Below, piece by piece: positions 644-8,057 of a stretch of 64,000 nt of DNA. The position numbers and the translations under genes were made by a program. Numbering within the stretch: the stretch's first letter is position 1; every line of letters starts with the position of its first letter. The stretch comes from an uncultured Lentisphaerota bacterium (lineage in GTDB: Bacteria; Verrucomicrobiota; Lentisphaeria; Victivallales; UBA1829): contig ONQZ01000007.1 of NCBI GenBank assembly GCA_900320095.1, positions 534 to 64,533 of the forward strand, written 5' to 3'. The notes under the pieces were generated by a model that had not been told where the DNA came from, searched no databases, and saw only the letters and a program-made list of their open reading frames with translations.

Positions 644-2965
644 TTACGCGGCGGGAACGGTCTCTTCGGACTGCCCCTTGACATTCTGCTGCTTGATGAG
701 ATTCTGAACTTTCTCCAGATTCTCCTTGCCGAACGCATCGTCGGGCGCGATGACCAGCAGATGCTTGCACTGGTCTTCCGCCTGCATGTATCTTTCGGCG
801 GCGATGCTGTTTTCGATGACGTGGCGCATGCAGTCGGCCCACAGCTCGACGACGTCTTCGCGGTAGTTCACAGCGTGACGCGGGAAACTGAGAACATTCA
901 CGGCATCCTCATAGCGCTTTGCCTCGGACAGCCTTTTCGCATAGATGAACGCCGGAAGCATGGATGTCTTTTCCATATCGCAAGCCTCTTTTGCGGTCTC
1001 CAGCGCCTTTGCCTCGTCTCCTTTTTCGTGATAGAGTTCCGAGAGATTTACGAGAATCAGTGACGGGAAGCGGTAGGTCTTCAGGATCGCCTTGTATCTC
1101 ATCTCAGCCTCATCGAACCGCTCATATTCGCAGAGGCGGTTCGCCGCATAGAATGTGAATTCAGGATCGCCGGTCGGCGTCGACGCCAGCAGATCAAGCG
1201 CTTCGTTTTCTTTTTCTTCGTCTTCGGTCGCGAGCAGTGCCGCCGCACGGAAGAATTTTCCGAAATGCTCCAATTTGCCGTCCTGCAAGGGGGTCAGTTT
1301 GTCGGCCATAGCCAGCAGGTCTTCCACTCTTTTATTCTCCACACAGAATTGGAAATACAGGTTCAGCAGCTCCAGATTGAACTCGGAGTGTTCCACCAGT
1401 GTACGGAAGATGACGGAGGCCTCGTCGTAACGTCCGAGCTGATCCAGCGCCAGCATATACAGGAAAAGAAGCTCCCGGTTTTGGTCCTGTTCTTCTTCCG
1501 CGACGGGAAGAACCGACTCTATCATGGGAATCGCCTGTTCCGCCTTGCCGTTGAAGATCAGGTGTTCCACGGTCAGTTGCAGCAGCAGGGCGTCATCGGG
1601 GAATTGCTCCAGGGCCTCCATCAGGTCGGCCTCTTTTGCCAGTCCTTTTTTACACTGGTCCATGATAATGATCTCGGTAAGCATCCGGTTGCCATGCAGA
1701 TAGCCCGAAAGGATCTTCGCAAGGTCGGCCATCTGCGTCGGATCTTTGCTGATCTCCGGCTTTTCCATTTCTCCGGAAATATAATCCATGCAGATAAGCA
1801 TAGCGCGGTTGTGCAGATCATGGAACGGCGCCGAAGAGAAGATTTCCTGAGCTACGTTCCTGATTTCGTTGAATGCGCCGTTTTTTATTGCTACACGCAA
1901 CCGGACAAGACGGGAAAGCGGGGAGATAATGATGTTTCCCGTTTTTCTGACAGCGGAAACGAGTTTTTCCTCATCGTTCTCCATATATGCGACCAGGATT
2001 TCACAGTAATCCGCCAGAACGGGCAGAACACCCGGTTTCCGGCGCAGTTTCTTTTCCAATGCCTTGAGTTCGTCCAGTTTCCCCTCGAAAACGCAACTCT
2101 CTGCATACAGCAGATACATGTTGACGTCGTCGATCGTTTTCAGGTATGGTTCGAGAATGCTGATCACATCGGCGAACCGGCATTGGGAATAAGAGAAATC
2201 CGCCAGGTACAGCGTTCCCGCGAAATAGTTTGTGGCCACAGCCTGTTTCAACAAAGCCTCTATTTCTTCCAACCGGTCTGTTTCTGTGCCGAGCTGAGCT
2301 CGGATGCGCCTGATGGAATAGAGGATTGCTTCGAGACGCACAACGGGATCCTCCGACTGCATGGCGATGCTCAGATACGTGTTCCGTTCGGCATCGGAAA
2401 GGGAATCATACAATGCCATGAATTCCGCCAGTCGCCCCAGGTCGTTTTTGTGGAACGCCTCGGGATCGGCTTTCACGGCTTTCTGGTACACATCTTTTCC
2501 ATCCTTCGGGTGGCCGGAACGGCAGGACGAAATCACATACAGGTAAAGCTCCTGGTCGGTGAACGGTTCGTCCACTTTTGTTTTCCGTCCCAGAATACTG
2601 TGCAGAAGCGCATAGTTCGCGGATCGAGCCGCGCTGGTCAGCATGTTTTCGTAATACTCCGGATTCAGCGGGTTCAGGGAATTGGCCGTCTGCCACATCT
2701 GCGCCTCCATCCCGGCGTTGTCGAATTCATGGTAAATGTTTGCCAGCGCAACGAACTCCGCTTCTGCGTTCGGGTCTTTGGAAACGTACTGGAGCAGAAG
2801 ACGCTCCGCCGCCGAATAATCTTTGTTTTCGTATGCCGCCATCGCGGCGCGGCGCAGTTTCGTGCGGCGTATCGTCTTCACTCCGAAATATCCGCATGCC
2901 AGAAGACTTGCCAGAAGGATAAGCCCCAGCACGATGACCGCGATGTTTTTCCGGTTCATTTTCAT
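644..2965 (-). CDS. Membrane-anchored TPR-like alpha-solenoid protein, paralogue 1 (773 aa)
   Basis: N-terminal hydrophobic anchor, then helical repeats (AAERLLLQYVSKDPN, ERYMQAEDQCKHLLVIAPDD); alignable end to end with 4743-7058. Confidence 0.8.
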   Translation of the reverse strand: MKMNRKNIAVIVLGLILLASLLACGYFGVKTIRRTKLRRAAMAAYENKDYSAAERLLLQYVSKDPNAEAEFVALANIYHEFDNAGMEAQMWQTANSLNPLNPEYYENMLTSAARSANYALLHSILGRKTKVDEPFTDQELYLYVISSCRSGHPKDGKDVYQKAVKADPEAFHKNDLGRLAEFMALYDSLSDAERNTYLSIAMQSEDPVVRLEAILYSIRRIRAQLGTETDRLEEIEALLKQAVATNYFAGTLYLADFSYSQCRFADVISILEPYLKTIDDVNMYLLYAESCVFEGKLDELKALEKKLRRKPGVLPVLADYCEILVAYMENDEEKLVSAVRKTGNIIISPLSRLVRLRVAIKNGAFNEIRNVAQEIFSSAPFHDLHNRAMLICMDYISGEMEKPEISKDPTQMADLAKILSGYLHGNRMLTEIIIMDQCKKGLAKEADLMEALEQFPDDALLLQLTVEHLIFNGKAEQAIPMIESVLPVAEEEQDQNRELLFLYMLALDQLGRYDEASVIFRTLVEHSEFNLELLNLYFQFCVENKRVEDLLAMADKLTPLQDGKLEHFGKFFRAAALLATEDEEKENEALDLLASTPTGDPEFTFYAANRLCEYERFDEAEMRYKAILKTYRFPSLILVNLSELYHEKGDEAKALETAKEACDMEKTSMLPAFIYAKRLSEAKRYEDAVNVLSFPRHAVNYREDVVELWADCMRHVIENSIAAERYMQAEDQCKHLLVIAPDDAFGKENLEKVQNLIKQQNVKGQSEETVPAA

Positions 2966-3171
2966 CTCATCTTTCTTTTCAGCTCAATGGTTTCTATCGG
3001 ATATCCGCGATGGAACCAGCGAATACTTGATTGTTTTTTGTTTCCCCGTTTCATCTGTCAGGATATAAAACAGCAGGCCGTCCGACCGGGGAAGGACGAA
3101 CCGTCTGCCTTGACGCCGTTACCTTCTTTCGGAAGACGCGGCTTTCATGATTCTGTCAAATTCATCCTGAT

Positions 3172-3197
3172 GGGAAAGCCGCGGCAAACGGCTTCCC
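3172..3197 (-). terminator. Hairpin after the 3216-3896 gene (possible terminator or attenuator)
   Basis: GGGAAAGCCG-CGGCAAA-CGGCTTCCC stem-loop 19 nt past the stop; no U-tract. Confidence 0.4.
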
Positions 3198-3215
3198 CTG
3201 TCAGGATTATCAGAT

Positions 3216-3896
3216 TCAGGCTTTCACCTGCTTGCGGTTGCGGTACATCACCAGGGCGGCGCCGAAGCCGAGAGCGATGAGGAGCGTCACGACCGGAGCC
3301 GGCAGCGGAGCGCCGAAGGGTTCGCCGCCAACGAGGAACATTGCGCCGTTGTTGTACTGGCCGACCCAGTTGCCCTTGCCCATATAAATGATATTGCCAT
3401 CGCCGATGGACCAGAAGTCGTTGCCGTTGGTCGCGGATCTCTGCCAGACCGATTCGACGAACGCGCCATTTCCGTTGCCGCCGGCAAGGCCGATCTCGAT
3501 GATGTCGTCCGTAACAGGGATGGAGAACTCATAGATGCCGATAGCATGCTGGTTCAGACCCGCTCTCACATCTTCGGGCAGGTTTTCCATGCCGGCGATA
3601 ATCTTCTGGATCTTCGACTTGTCGGAGGAGACCAGATACTGGTCGTCCTTGCTCAGGAGAGATCTGTAGGAAAGAACGGGATCGGCATTTTCGCCTGTAC
3701 CCTGGGTATAGCCGTTCACATAATAATTCCAGCCGTTATTCATGCGGAACATTTTAATGTTCAGCGTATTCGTGCTTTCGGAGCGCTCCATCGTGAGAAA
3801 ATCGGACACGTTCGACATGTCGACTTTCGGTTTTGCAAAGGCGATGGTGGCGGAAACGAAGAGGGCGGCGGTGAGAAGGAGGTTGCTAAGTTTCAT
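3216..3896 (-). CDS. Secreted protein with G-x-PLP-CTERM sorting signal (cargo B, 226 aa)
   Basis: Signal peptide MKLSNLLLTAALFVSATIAFA; Gly/Asn-rich body; C-terminus GAPLPAPVVTLLIALGFGAALVMYRNRKQVKA. Confidence 0.8.
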   Translation of the reverse strand: MKLSNLLLTAALFVSATIAFAKPKVDMSNVSDFLTMERSESTNTLNIKMFRMNNGWNYYVNGYTQGTGENADPVLSYRSLLSKDDQYLVSSDKSKIQKIIAGMENLPEDVRAGLNQHAIGIYEFSIPVTDDIIEIGLAGGNGNGAFVESVWQRSATNGNDFWSIGDGNIIYMGKGNWVGQYNNGAMFLVGGEPFGAPLPAPVVTLLIALGFGAALVMYRNRKQVKA

Positions 3897-4090
3897 GGTA
3901 GATTACCTTTCGTTTGTTTGGGGGTGGCGGGTTGTCCGCCGTGCTTCCGGTTTGTTTTGTGTTTTGTTGGAAGTTTTCCGGAAGCGGTTTCGGGGCATTC
4001 GTTTGCTATGGAATCCGACGCGCGGCGCCCCGTGGGCCGCGACCGCAGAACTCCGGCGTCAGTCGTGTCCGATGCGCCGGGAATCCCGCC

Positions 4091-4558
4091 TCATTCCCTC
4101 TGACAGAATAAATCCGGTCCTGGGGAGATCGTGTGAATCGTATTAGGCGGATATGAATACAAAATCTTCATGCGGAGAAGACGTGCCGTGAGCAGAAGCA
4201 CGCTCTCCGTCGTTTGTTCGGAGTGATCGTTGCGGCGGCCGTTGCGGAGTTTCCGGGCGAGCCCGAACGCTGCGCCGAGGAGCAGGGAGATCAGCACGCC
4301 GGGGAGCGGCTGCCCGTGGACGGTGTTGATGCCGAGTTCGCGGTGCAGAAATTCCGAGGCGGCGGACCTGATGGAGTCGGTGAAGAGGAAAAGCGAAGCG
4401 GCGGCTTCATCCTGCGAGGCGGATTCAGCCTCGACGGCTTCCGCGGATACGGCGTATTCGCCCGCTCTGGACGCGTCGAACGCATCCACGGCGAGGGTCT
4501 CGAACGAGAAGCCCGCCGCGAACAGGAAGATCGCCAGGATTGTCAGAAGTCGTTTCAT
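4091..4558 (-). CDS. Small secreted protein with G-x-PLP-CTERM signal and a C-terminal extension (cargo C, 155 aa)
   Basis: Signal peptide MKRLLTILAIFLFAAGFSFETLA; internal GQPLPGVLISLLLGAAFGLARKLRNGRR; RBS (GGAGA) and a good promoter upstream. Confidence 0.65.
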   Translation of the reverse strand: MKRLLTILAIFLFAAGFSFETLAVDAFDASRAGEYAVSAEAVEAESASQDEAAASLFLFTDSIRSAASEFLHRELGINTVHGQPLPGVLISLLLGAAFGLARKLRNGRRNDHSEQTTESVLLLTARLLRMKILYSYPPNTIHTISPGPDLFCQRE

Positions 4559-4596
4559 GAAGCCGTATTCTCCGTTTCTTGCAGTTCAATTATATA

Positions 4597-4625
4597 AATA
4601 TACACCCGCGAATCATTATTTTCAA
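4597..4625 (-). promoter_or_regulatory. sigma70-type promoter for cargo C (and probably cargo B)
   Basis: TTGAAA-17-TATATT, 39 nt upstream of the ATG at 4558. Confidence 0.7.
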
Positions 4626-4742
4626 GGTTATTTAATAAAAAACCAAGTTTTTCTAACAAAGTCTGGGAATGAAGGATTGCGAATGGGAAAATGCCCGTTG
4701 TGTTAGGAACAATTGTCCTTGCTTTTTGAGAATAAGAACTCT

Positions 4743-7058
4743 TTATTGCATGGGAGTTGCGGGCTTGGGCGATTCGATCCGCTTTCCCGTGCTTCTCTGC
4801 CCGAGTTTTTTCCGGGCTTTCTCCAGGTTTTCTTTTGCCATGGCATCATCCGGCGCGAAGATGAGCAGGTGCTTGCACTGTTCTTCCGCCTGCATGTATC
4901 TTTCGCCGGTCATGCTGGCCTCGATGACGTGGTGCATGATGTCCGTCCAGAGATTCATGATCTCATCCGGCAGCTCGACTTTGCGATTCGGGATGCTGAG
5001 GACTTTTTCCGCATCCTGATACTGTCCGTTTGCCGCGAGCATTTTCGCATAGATGAATTGGCCGCCCCCGTTGTCCTGATCCGTTTCCCACGCCTGTTTC
5101 GCATAGGAAAGGGCTTCCGCCTTCATTCCTTTGGCCAGATAGACCTCGGCGATATTGGCGAAAATCAGACGATTGTCGGGATACTTGTCAACCAATGCGA
5201 GATAGCAGGAAAGCGCCTGGTCCGGCAAGTCGTATTTTGAGAACAGATTTGCCGCGCGGAGTGCGAAGTCCGGAAGGTCCGTTTTTGTGGTTTTGAGCAG
5301 GGAAAGCGCATCATCCTTCTTTCCCTGCAGAAGCAGTTCCTCCGCCCGGAAGAACGAGGCCAGCGCCTTCAGGTCCGGTACGTCCGAGGCGGCCAGTCGT
5401 TCCGCCATTTTCGACAGTTCCTCTTTGCGCTCATGTTTGATGCAGAACCTGAGATAGCGATAGAGAATTTCACGGTCCATTTCATTATTGTCGACCAGGG
5501 CGGCGAATTCCTTCGCGGCTTCGTCGATCTTTCCCGTAAGCTCCAGTGCGAGCATGTGCAGGAGGTCGAACGAAATGGAACGTTCTTTTTTCTCAAGCGC
5601 ATAGAACCGTTCGACGTAATCGAGACACTGTTCCGGATTGCCGTTGAAAAGCTCGAATTCGGCAGCAACTTCCAGAAGATACGGGTCCTGCGGAAATGCC
5701 TCCAGATTTTCCTGAAGGATCTGGCGGGTCAGCACATTCCTCTTGCGCATATCTGAGATGATTATCCGTATCACTAAAGGATCCTTTTTGTCGGAACCGG
5801 AAATAAGCTGGGCAAGTTTAATGATCCGGGAATCTTCGGCACAATCCGGGTTTTCCTGGATTTTGCTCCATAGATAGTACTGGACTGCGGCACGGGCTCT
5901 ATCCCGCAGGTCGTAGAACGGCGGTTTTTTCATGATCGTTTCGAGGATGTTGACGATCTTTTCCACATTGTCGTTATTGAGCGCGATCTGGAGATTCATC
6001 AGATTGGCGAGGTCCGTCTGTGCTGCACCGACTTCCTGCATGTGCTTGGCGAGGTCGTCGTTATTGTCCTGAGTGAAATCGTACAGCGCTTCAAAATAAG
6101 CAATCTGCATCCTGTATTTCTGTCCGAGGGAACGGGAATGTTCGATCAGCGGTTTCAGCTTCTCCGGCTGTGCGCCGTACACGCAGCTTTCCGCATAAAG
6201 AATGGATAGCAGATTATGATCAATATTCGCCAGATAAGGCTCAGCGATCTCGATTACGGAACCGAATTTCATGTGGGAATAATAGAAATCGACCAGAAGC
6301 GGGGTCGCGGCGAACCGGTTCAGTTCGACCGCCTGTTTCAACAGTTTTTCCCTCTGTTCCAGGATGGAGGATTCTGTGCCGTCTCCGGAAACAGCAAGAG
6401 ACGCGGTGCGAAGCAGGATGGATTCCAGCCGGACGAAAGGATTGTCCGACTTGATTCCGTCGTCTATAAATTTCCTGCGCTCGTCATCGGTACGTTTTCC
6501 GATTGTTACAAGGAACTCCGCAAATCGACCGAGATCATCCTTTCGGAATACCTCCGGATCCGCCTTGAGCATACGTTCATAATACTTTTCGGCATCCCTG
6601 GCACGGTCTGTGATAACCGCGCTGATGAGGTACAGCATCATTTCCTTCGGAGCCAGTTTCGTATTCAGGACGGCCTTGCGGTTCAGGGCCGTGTAAAGGT
6701 GCTGGAAGTTGCGAGCGTTCATGGCGCACGTTGTGTAATTGTCCCAGTACTCCGGCTTCAGCGGATTCAGCGTGCTGGCTCGATGCCAGCATCGCATTTC
6801 CTCGCCCGTATTGCCGAAATGGTTATAGACCTTAGCAAGGCGGACGAAATCCTCCTCGCTGTCAGGATCCTTCCTCACGTATTCGTTCAGAAGTTTCTCC
6901 GCTTTTTTCCAGTCCTCCGCGGCAAAAGCCTTCCTCGCTTCCATCCGCAGATGGCTCCGGCGCATCGTCTTGATCCCGAAATACCCCAGGAATCCGAGAC
7001 ACGCGAGCAGAACGACCGATACAAGGACAATTACAAGAACAAGTTTGGTCTTTTTCAT
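4743..7058 (-). CDS. Membrane-anchored TPR-like alpha-solenoid protein, paralogue 2 (771 aa)
   Basis: Start moved to MKKTKLVLV (ATG at 7058, [15 protein letters not shown]); same architecture as 644-2965 (GYFGIKTMRR, YVRKDPD, DLGRFAEF, ERYMQAEEQCKHLL). Confidence 0.8.
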   Translation of the reverse strand: MKKTKLVLVIVLVSVVLLACLGFLGYFGIKTMRRSHLRMEARKAFAAEDWKKAEKLLNEYVRKDPDSEEDFVRLAKVYNHFGNTGEEMRCWHRASTLNPLKPEYWDNYTTCAMNARNFQHLYTALNRKAVLNTKLAPKEMMLYLISAVITDRARDAEKYYERMLKADPEVFRKDDLGRFAEFLVTIGKRTDDERRKFIDDGIKSDNPFVRLESILLRTASLAVSGDGTESSILEQREKLLKQAVELNRFAATPLLVDFYYSHMKFGSVIEIAEPYLANIDHNLLSILYAESCVYGAQPEKLKPLIEHSRSLGQKYRMQIAYFEALYDFTQDNNDDLAKHMQEVGAAQTDLANLMNLQIALNNDNVEKIVNILETIMKKPPFYDLRDRARAAVQYYLWSKIQENPDCAEDSRIIKLAQLISGSDKKDPLVIRIIISDMRKRNVLTRQILQENLEAFPQDPYLLEVAAEFELFNGNPEQCLDYVERFYALEKKERSISFDLLHMLALELTGKIDEAAKEFAALVDNNEMDREILYRYLRFCIKHERKEELSKMAERLAASDVPDLKALASFFRAEELLLQGKKDDALSLLKTTKTDLPDFALRAANLFSKYDLPDQALSCYLALVDKYPDNRLIFANIAEVYLAKGMKAEALSYAKQAWETDQDNGGGQFIYAKMLAANGQYQDAEKVLSIPNRKVELPDEIMNLWTDIMHHVIEASMTGERYMQAEEQCKHLLIFAPDDAMAKENLEKARKKLGQRSTGKRIESPKPATPMQ

Positions 7059-7118
7059 TTCTTTTTCCTGGGCGCATCGTGGTACTGTCTTCCCGATGCG
7101 TATCATTGTCAGTGGTTC

Positions 7119-7150
7119 AAAAAAGCCCCGGTCAGTTTCCCAACCGGGGC
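7119..7150 (-). terminator. Rho-independent terminator between cargo A and TPR paralogue 2
   Basis: Minus strand GCCCCGGT-loop-ACCGGGGC followed by TTTTTT. Confidence 0.75.
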
Positions 7151-7196
7151 GAATTTCATCAATAAACGTTTAGAAAATGCTTTTGCCGTGAACGGT

Positions 7197-8057
7197 TCAA
7201 GCCGTGATGGCTTTTCTGCGGCGGACATACCAGAATCCGAGCCCGAAGAGTCCGGCGATCAGAGCGATCTGAAGGCCACCGGGAAGCGGAGAACCGACAG
7301 CTCCCGGATCTGAAGCGATAATTCCGAAAAAGACACGGCTGCCATTCGGGTCAAGCGCGGCAAGAGGCATCGCCAGTCCAGCTTCTGTGGCATTTCCATT
7401 CTTATAAAGCAGCATCAGCTGGTCCGTGGCATCAGTGGTGGTAATGCCATCGCCATATCCGCCTTTGTACCATGTGGAATAGGACCAGGCCCCTTCCTCA
7501 AGATTGTTAGTGCGATTCAGATAGATTTCGATTTCGTCGCCCGCCGAGAAAGTTCCAAGATAATACTTATTGCGGGTCACGTCATATTGGTAGTACTCAT
7601 TGGGGGCAAAATGCACGCTTTCGAAAGGAACGGCTTCGGCCTTAAGAGGATTGATTTCTTCCTTACCGATTAGGGCCTCGTTCTGGGAGTCCAGATAACG
7701 GAATCCGACATAAGAGATGCCTTTTGCCATCAGGGAATCAACGTTAGTGCTGCTTCCTACATTATCAATATAGTCACCGAGGTAAAGACTGACACTCTCT
7801 CCCGTAATGCGAATCGTGTAAAGAGAATCGTGCTGGAGAGTTTGATTCGGGTAGTTGCTTCTGACAACCTGATAGGAACCATAATCGGTGATGATGCCAT
7901 TGACAGCATACGTATGACCCGCCCAATTGAGATTGTCTGCGACATCAGTATAGGGTTTGTTCGACGCGCTTTCAAAATAGTCGTAATAAGTTCCGGCGGA
8001 TGCGGTAGCTGCCGTGAGCGCAAGTGCGGCGGTGAGGATCGGAAGAATGTGTTTCAT
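7197..8057 (-). CDS. Secreted protein with G-x-PLP-CTERM sorting signal (cargo A, 286 aa)
   Basis: Signal peptide MKHILPILTAALALTAATASA; Tyr/Asn/Gly/Ser/Thr-rich; C-terminus GSPLPGGLQIALIAGLFGLGFWYVRRRKAITA; visibly lower GC than core genes. Confidence 0.8.
   Translation of the reverse strand: MKHILPILTAALALTAATASAGTYYDYFESASNKPYTDVADNLNWAGHTYAVNGIITDYGSYQVVRSNYPNQTLQHDSLYTIRITGESVSLYLGDYIDNVGSSTNVDSLMAKGISYVGFRYLDSQNEALIGKEEINPLKAEAVPFESVHFAPNEYYQYDVTRNKYYLGTFSAGDEIEIYLNRTNNLEEGAWSYSTWYKGGYGDGITTTDATDQLMLLYKNGNATEAGLAMPLAALDPNGSRVFFGIIASDPGAVGSPLPGGLQIALIAGLFGLGFWYVRRRKAITA

Follow-up and report, generated by a model that had tools for sequence, protein, structure and literature searches.

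Exosortase systems are widespread and biochemistry on them is scarce; one of them, the VPLPA system, belongs to Alphaproteobacteria. The PEP-CTERM/exosortase (EpsH) system was described by Haft et al. in 2006 (PMC1569441) and is covered by models TIGR02595, TIGR02602 and, for EpsI, TIGR02914. PEP-CTERM proteins together with an EpsH gene have been reported in Akkermansia (PMC4960237), and full-text literature searches turned up no account of an exosortase system for Victivallales, Lentisphaeria or Kiritimatiellia. The role of the tetratricopeptide repeat (TPR) partners of exosortases has been a question since PrsT was named in 2006. Here we analyse five genes at positions 644–8057 of a 64,000-nucleotide stretch of DNA (the window, C34:534–64533 in our contig numbering) from an uncultured Lentisphaerota bacterium whose assembly comprises 2.75 Mb in 80 contigs with 60% G+C. 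With a probability of roughly 0.8, we consider these genes to be substrates and accessory proteins of an unnamed exosortase subtype, present in Victivallales and in other lineages of the Genome Taxonomy Database (GTDB) phylum.

The five open reading frames (ORFs) are all open and lie on the minus strand in the order cargoA–TPR2–cargoC–cargoB–TPR1, with the following features.

7197–8057, minus strand: cargoA, 286 aa; signal peptide MKHILPILTAALALTAATASA, beta-sandwich domain and C-terminal tail GSPLPGGLQIALIAGLFGLGFWYVRRRKAITA, which scores 71 bits against the tail hidden Markov model (HMM)
7278–7295, minus strand: GSPLPG motif of cargoA, 2–3 residues ahead of the hydrophobic helix
7119–7150, minus strand: terminator-like hairpin after the cargoA stop and ahead of the TPR2 start; 11-bp stem with 8 G-C pairs, then TTTTTT
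4743–7058, minus strand: TPR2, 771 aa; N-terminal membrane anchor and TPR repeats; clade I of the TPR family
4091–4558, minus strand: cargoC, 155 aa; signal peptide, acidic stretch of ~60 aa, GQPLPG followed by a helix and RKLRNGRR, and a 46-aa extension
4298–4315, minus strand: GQPLPG motif of cargoC
3216–3896, minus strand: cargoB, 226 aa, secreted; tail GAPLPAPVVTLLIALGFGAALVMYRNRKQVKA
3297–3314, minus strand: GAPLPA motif of cargoB
644–2965, minus strand: TPR1, 773 aa; N-anchored TPR protein; clade II of the TPR family

Gene order and strand are those given in a first-pass annotation of this DNA, whose motif coordinates are exact. The paralogy of TPR1 and TPR2, which it had also noted, is borne out by 38% identity over about 750 aa (E 1e-166). 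The TPR2 ORF itself runs from 4743 to 7106, the likely true start being at 7058, where the homologues and a 771-aa database entry agree. Each cargo has a typical cleavable signal peptide at its N-terminus. The mature regions had been described as dissimilar, and there is indeed no BLAST-level similarity between the cargo families; profile–profile comparison for remote homology gave a single 20-residue motif, at a probability of 50% or less. The proposed arrangement of motif, transmembrane helix and basic tail stands as a terminal signal in cargoA and cargoB but not in cargoC, which continues for 46 residues past the basic cluster.

A search of all the open frames of the genome with the tail HMM gave exactly five matches at 45–71 bits, the next candidate reaching 13 bits. 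Three of the five are in the window and the others are at C35:6077–6832 and C74:35971–36702. The residues G-x-P-L-P are invariant in sets of 16 and 17 aligned tails from several genera, and the pattern is far beyond chance. The cargos of the window and of contigs C35 and C74 terminate 4–11 residues past the basic cluster, with cargoC as the exception. A genome-wide scan for any C-terminal helix followed by a basic cluster found no second family of C-terminal signals. The genome also contains exactly four TPR paralogues, each of which directly follows a same-strand tail gene. As in the PEP-CTERM/EpsH system, the signal is tripartite, consisting of a short proline-containing motif, a helix and a basic cluster; unlike PEP-CTERM, the motif is G-x-P-L-P-[GA] and not PEP, and the TIGR02595 cut-off is not reached. 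On these sequence comparisons we regard the G-x-PLP tails as real lineage-specific sorting signals, and the proposal that such a signal comes with cargo genes accompanied by a dedicated TPR gene is supported.

The window has no exosortase, as the first-pass annotation had stated; a single one is encoded elsewhere in the genome, on contig C15 (C15:9755–10681). It scores 94.7 bits against PF09721 (versus 25.7) and 47.4 bits against TIGR04178, the exosortase/archaeosortase signature (cut-off 23), and its residues Cys189/Arg234/His255 are invariant in 43 orthologues. Directly upstream are two GT4 glycosyltransferase genes and a WecG/TagA/CpsF transferase gene, and directly downstream is a gene for a 379-aa EpsI-like protein, in which several membrane helices are combined with a soluble C-terminal domain. 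The EpsI-like proteins of relatives match TIGR02914 at E 3e-9 to 1e-4, with 13–36.5 bits against a cut-off of 42.8. In the genus to which the organism belongs (uncultured rumen Victivallales/Lentisphaeria), the exosortase and EpsI-like genes are found at a glycosyltransferase locus that has no TPR gene. A multi-spanning exosortase with a Cys/Arg/His triad and glycosyltransferase neighbours are features of the PEP-CTERM/EpsH system, and the EpsI-like gene directly downstream is probably another. Outside the genus, it is the TPR gene that adjoins the exosortase on its upstream side. Unlike that system, the exosortase here passes the generic signature only and no subtype, and the EpsI-like domain is on a protein of its own, behind a multi-helix membrane region.

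Two further observations concern the putative processing enzyme and its surroundings. A rhomboid or rhombosortase was considered for this role and rejected: the genome has a single ordinary rhomboid, which is uninformative because each of 14 control genomes has one too. Downstream of the EpsI-like gene, on the minus strand at C15:11903–13704 and thus convergent with the exosortase/EpsI pair, are type II secretion pseudopilin-like genes (weak T2SSK match, prepilin-type N-terminus).

The distribution of the components was determined in a first sample of 61 relatives, taken to order level, and in a second set of 401 genomes that samples the phylum evenly. Among the 61 relatives, an exosortase orthologue is found in 25 and the TPR family in 25, with 24 genomes common to both; the lone TPR-only genome has a weak generic TPR match, and in the lone exosortase-only genome (locus L057) the TPR gene is cut by the contig end. 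Tails are present in 23 of the 25 exosortase-positive relatives and in none of the 36 negative ones, and the two positive relatives without a tail have their TPR gene at a contig edge. Two species of the genus lack exosortase, TPR and tails, and several other genera are mixed, the three parts always occurring together. In the 401 genomes, an EpsI-like protein is found in 58 and tails in 53 (both in 48, EpsI-like only in 10, tail only in 5 and neither in 338), the discordant cases being mostly weak matches or contig edges. Strict co-occurrence of signal and enzyme is likewise a property of the PEP-CTERM/EpsH system. These data define a compact system of four parts, the G-x-PLP-G tail, the N-anchored TPR protein, the exosortase and the EpsI-like membrane protein, which has few substrates and is found in about 14% of the sampled genomes of the phylum.

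The order of the genes provides a second line of evidence. In the first sample, all 11 non-genus genomes have TPR, exosortase and EpsI contiguous. Among the 30 best loci from the phylum sample, exosortase and EpsI are adjacent in 30/30, and the TPR gene immediately precedes the exosortase in 23 of the 25 loci from outside the genus. In many non-genus genomes the end of one or two tail genes falls ~3.1 kb ahead of the EpsI-like gene, giving the order cargo–TPR–exosortase–EpsI; in others the cargos are dispersed single genes ending in strong terminators, just as dispersed cargo genes in the PEP-CTERM/EpsH system stand alone, each with a terminator at its end. In most genera there is one TPR gene, often with several dispersed cargos. 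From this conserved order it follows that the ancestral state was a TPR–exosortase–EpsI core with the cargo nearby or scattered. Inclusion of the TPR gene in the core operon, and the presence of only 1–9 cargos per genome, are differences from the PEP-CTERM/EpsH system. Comparative genomics thus shows that the ~770-aa N-anchored TPR protein is a core genetic component of the system, and the linkage of TPR and tail genes proposed from the window holds in other genomes.

The closest analogy, as had been suggested, is the exosortase/PEP-CTERM system with its PrsT-like TPR protein. As with XrtA/PrsT (TIGR02917; PrsK, PrsR), a large TPR protein tracks the system and sometimes adjoins the exosortase. 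However, the PrsT gene is adjacent in 3/13 cases, and the TPR gene here immediately precedes the exosortase in almost all non-genus genomes. The two TPR proteins score 49.3 and 26.2 bits against TIGR02917, whose cut-off is 312. Unlike PrsT, the proteins have an uncleaved N-terminal anchor with no lipoprotein signal, and in the genus they are multiplied and paired with cargos. A lipoprotein reading of the N-terminus ('LLAC') was tried and rejected; the Cys is not conserved and is inside a helix of ~23 residues. In distant homologues the basic flank is stronger on the N-terminal side of the anchor, which favours a periplasmic TPR domain. A comparison of the TPR profile with the sequences in the PDB gave generic TPR matches only.

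Within the genus the arrangement differs from that of its relatives. There are 2–5 TPR copies per genome, in cassettes unlinked from the exosortase locus. A tail gene ends within 360 bp upstream, on the same strand, for 41 of the 48 genus TPR genes, and 51 of the 53 genus tails are within 1.3 kb of a TPR gene. The maximum-likelihood tree of the TPR proteins has three clades with support 100/100, each matched to one tail subtype (...PLPGG[LV]QIALIAGLFGLGFWY.RRRK; ...PLPAPVVTLLIALGFGAALVMYRNRK; GEPLPAPAVTLI.ALAAGALFLLYKNRRQR), and the three paralogue types in the genus are 32–38% identical to each other. These results show that the TPR gene left the exosortase locus in the genus and expanded into three clades, and that each clade was inherited with one cargo/tail subtype, with cargo, hairpin and TPR forming a cassette. 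The idea of one TPR protein for each cargo fits the genus but is peculiar to it and not general to the system. The cassette expansion is the genuinely unusual feature. Directly upstream of the C74-type cassette, an anti-sigma gene (zf-HC2-like N-terminus) is conserved in each of 13 genomes compared (loci L082–L094); in the genome itself it is preceded by an ECF sigma gene, the two genes spanning C74:34276–35873.

The TPR paralogues that have no upstream tail gene include G012:C35:79257–81557, G005:C8:316158–318398 (L032), L018, L077, L081 and L074:287. One paralogue of this minority has two in-frame TAA stops, and in L018 the gene upstream of the TPR has a degenerate tail with neither G-x-PLP nor a basic cluster; these look like decaying cassettes. 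A typical Victivallales cargo–TPR cassette, with a TPR protein 73% identical to TPR2, was also found on contig CACZRJ010000047.1 (locus L062), which bears the label 'uncultured Ruminococcus sp. RUG12874' and has probably been misbinned or mislabelled.

A conserved hairpin follows each cargo gene, ahead of the TPR gene. The family-A hairpin (GCCCCGGTTGGGAAACTGACCGGGGC and a T-run, at 7119–7150 in the window) is almost identical in every genus member examined and also in the paralogous C35 cassette, and the 250-bp gap between cargoB and TPR1 contains two hairpins (3070–3207). The family-A hairpin is probably an attenuator or an mRNA-stabilising 3' end. We compared the locus with four rumen metatranscriptomes (cattle, sheep). 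In each of three, a single near-identical contig spans the full cargoA gene, and in the fourth, two contigs extend over most of it. The depth over cargoA is the highest of the region in all four runs (RNA contig depth 5–14 versus 0–5 over TPR2); cargoB is covered in the rumen RNA and the TPR genes are covered in patches only. This pattern is consistent with attenuation at the hairpin. Other RNA contigs, from other strains or paralogues, match cargoA only where it encodes its signal peptide and tail, diverging beyond these parts (at 7298–7300 and 8010–8026), so that the constant ends and swapped middle of the cargo are seen directly in community RNA.

The same division is found between orthologous cassettes, where identity is 57–79% for the TPR protein, 41–91% for the signal peptide and 69–88% for the tail, and 23–46% for the mature domain. 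A fast-changing middle between constant ends is what one would anticipate for surface proteins that phage, host or competitors drive to diversify. Family scans of the cargos found no Pfam or NCBIfam domain, and all 168 database homologues of cargoA are 'hypothetical', none with a Pfam domain. The AlphaFold2 model of cargoA (51 sequences, pLDDT 86) is an all-beta beta-sandwich followed by the tail helix. A fold search of the PDB with this model returned nothing below E 1e-3, and the matches listed, with TM-scores of at most 0.2, are noise.

In cargoC, the 46 residues past the basic cluster (window 4091–4231) finish in a strongly conserved end, ...HTISPGPDLFCQRE. The extension is conserved in nine genomes with the frame open, and it is probably translated, since the substitutions in its last 28 codons (84/68/180 by codon position) are concentrated at the third position. 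cargoC might be a regulator or decoy instead of a normal substrate; it could, for example, be a substrate-like regulator, cleavage of which would free a cytoplasmic peptide from the extension.

We infer the likely steps of the pathway from the way the signal is built, from the catalytic triad of the enzyme, from the structure of the operon and from the co-occurrence of the parts. Each cargo would be exported by Sec by way of its N-terminal signal peptide, and its C-terminal helix would keep it tethered in the inner membrane, with the basic cluster in the cytoplasm and G-x-P-L-P-G at the outer face. The single exosortase, together with the adjacent EpsI-like membrane protein, would then cut at or near PLP, and the variable beta-sandwich domain would be released or transferred to the cell surface or glycan layer. 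Each TPR paralogue may serve as a private adaptor, and the hairpin would hold TPR expression below that of the cargo. The three points on which the first-pass annotation had staked its reading all came out in its favour: no known model claims the tails, a sortase-like enzyme, the exosortase, is present in the genome and tracks them across relatives, and the TPR genes are linked to tail genes in other genomes.

Several points weigh against this interpretation. The tails are under the PEP-CTERM cut-off, with best scores of 13.6–15.3 against 16, and their motif is P-L-P with no P-E-P. The exosortase of the genome is likewise under the cut-off of every named subtype (XrtV 51.6 against 313, XrtD 47.5 against 400 and XrtA 44.3 against 208 bits), and its own EpsI-like protein has no direct family match, being identified by its 32% identity over 365 aa to those of relatives. 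Because of relatedness among many of the genomes, fewer independent events lie behind the co-occurrence than the counts suggest. Seven of the 48 genus TPR genes have no upstream tail gene, the match between TPR clade and tail could result from simple co-inheritance after cassette duplication, and cargoC carries its signal internally and not as a canonical C-terminal signal. In the genus, the segment after the TPR anchor matches or exceeds the N-terminus in basic character, at odds with the topology suggested by the distant homologues. The RNA data show only that the cargo genes are transcribed, because contig depth is a weak measure of expression. Finally, tail cleavage and TPR–cargo contact are predictions.

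If the exosortase reading is accepted, the role of the TPR proteins can be considered further. They may act as adaptors or chaperones, as first proposed. We tentatively suggest a scheme in which one shared exosortase is served by several private TPR adaptors, each recognising the tail subtype of its own hypervariable cargo (the helix and cytoplasmic end) and gating its delivery. Recognition of the tail subtype would be more plausible than recognition of the mature domain, because mature domains change fast, and the tails are constant and track the TPR clade. It is also possible that the system is exosortase-dependent but that the TPR proteins have a general scaffolding or regulatory role and are not cargo-specific adaptors, as has been proposed for PrsT with PrsK/PrsR, the paralogues having simply ridden along with the cassettes. 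The single TPR gene of most genera, often serving several dispersed cargos, fits such a role, co-duplication alone predicts that clade and tail should match, and the position of the C74-type cassette behind the anti-sigma gene, with the ECF sigma gene ahead of it in the genome, hints at regulation. The diverged paralogues, however, remain intact beside their own cargo type in ~14 genus species, adjacent in the 41 of 48 cases described above, and this retention is hard to explain if one copy serves all cargos, which disfavours the general role. Three diverged TPR paralogues, each tied to one cargo type in one rumen genus, make the role of the TPR partner testable by swaps. If they are private adaptors, the genus would be a natural dissection of PrsT-like TPR function in exosortase systems.

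We considered it unlikely that the tails belong to the PEP-CTERM or VPLPA-CTERM/XrtD families as ordinary representatives falling just under threshold. The near-miss of some tails to PEP-CTERM is in favour of this, as are the P-L-P core in common with VPLPA-CTERM/XrtD (TIGR03370, TIGR04152) and the nearest exosortase models, XrtD (VPLPA-specific) and XrtA, XrtD being the best or second-best match. Isolated tails, 13 in all, from the genome itself and from other genera, were therefore compared with the models. None of them reaches a CTERM cut-off (PEP-CTERM up to 15.3 against 16; Loki-CTERM 17.9 against 19.9), and VPLPA-CTERM (TIGR03370) has no match to any of the 13 even at E ≤ 10; the PEP-CTERM model (TIGR02595) has no match above cut-off anywhere in the genome. 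The sub-threshold matches, to the Loki-, PEP-, MYXO- and Heimdall-CTERM and LPXTG models, arise because the generic helix and basic part are shared. The suggestion that the tails lie outside the named CTERM families was therefore well founded. The enzymes are equally distant, with exosortase scores of 47–79 bits compared with cut-offs of 400 for XrtD and 208 for XrtA; in other genera the orthologues reach 60–79.4 bits with XrtD and 59–72 bits with XrtA, likewise below the cut-offs. XrtD is moreover a fused exosortase–EpsI protein of ~486 aa, and here exosortase and EpsI are separate genes. The TPR protein, at 49 against 312 bits for PrsT and with no lipoprotein character, also differs. 

The description of the locus as a new protein-sorting system goes too far. 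Since the exosortase looks ordinary and has an EpsI-like partner, and the TPR gene was ancestrally the first gene of the same TPR–exosortase–EpsI operon, this is not a categorically new sorting system; it is best classed as an unnamed variant of the exosortase/PEP-CTERM kind, nearest to XrtD and XrtA but far below their cut-offs.

It seems still less probable that the cargo–TPR pairs form a self-contained envelope module, independent of any exosortase, in which the tail is a permanent anchor that docks the ectodomain on its own TPR scaffold. Such a module would account for a window without an exosortase, for genus cassettes unlinked from the exosortase locus and for tails that stay under the CTERM cut-offs. 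It does not account for the almost perfect co-occurrence of tail, TPR and exosortase and their loss together, even within the genus, or for the position of the TPR gene directly upstream of the exosortase outside it (11/11 and 23/25 loci).

The idea that the tails are LPXTG-like signals for a sortase, prompted by three tails from other genera (L097, L101 and L103, of the G-Q-PLPG type) that pass the LPXTG_anchor cut-off with 16.1–19.5 against 15.9, is effectively refuted, as the sortase domain PF04203 has no match at E ≤ 1 in the genome, the motif is P-L-P-G and not LPXTG, and the tails co-occur with the exosortase. Automated annotation may accordingly label G-Q-PLPG proteins as 'LPXTG cell wall anchor' in organisms without a sortase. 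New family models would correct these occasional false 'LPXTG anchor' labels, and the 'hypothetical protein' labels, in Lentisphaeria genomes.

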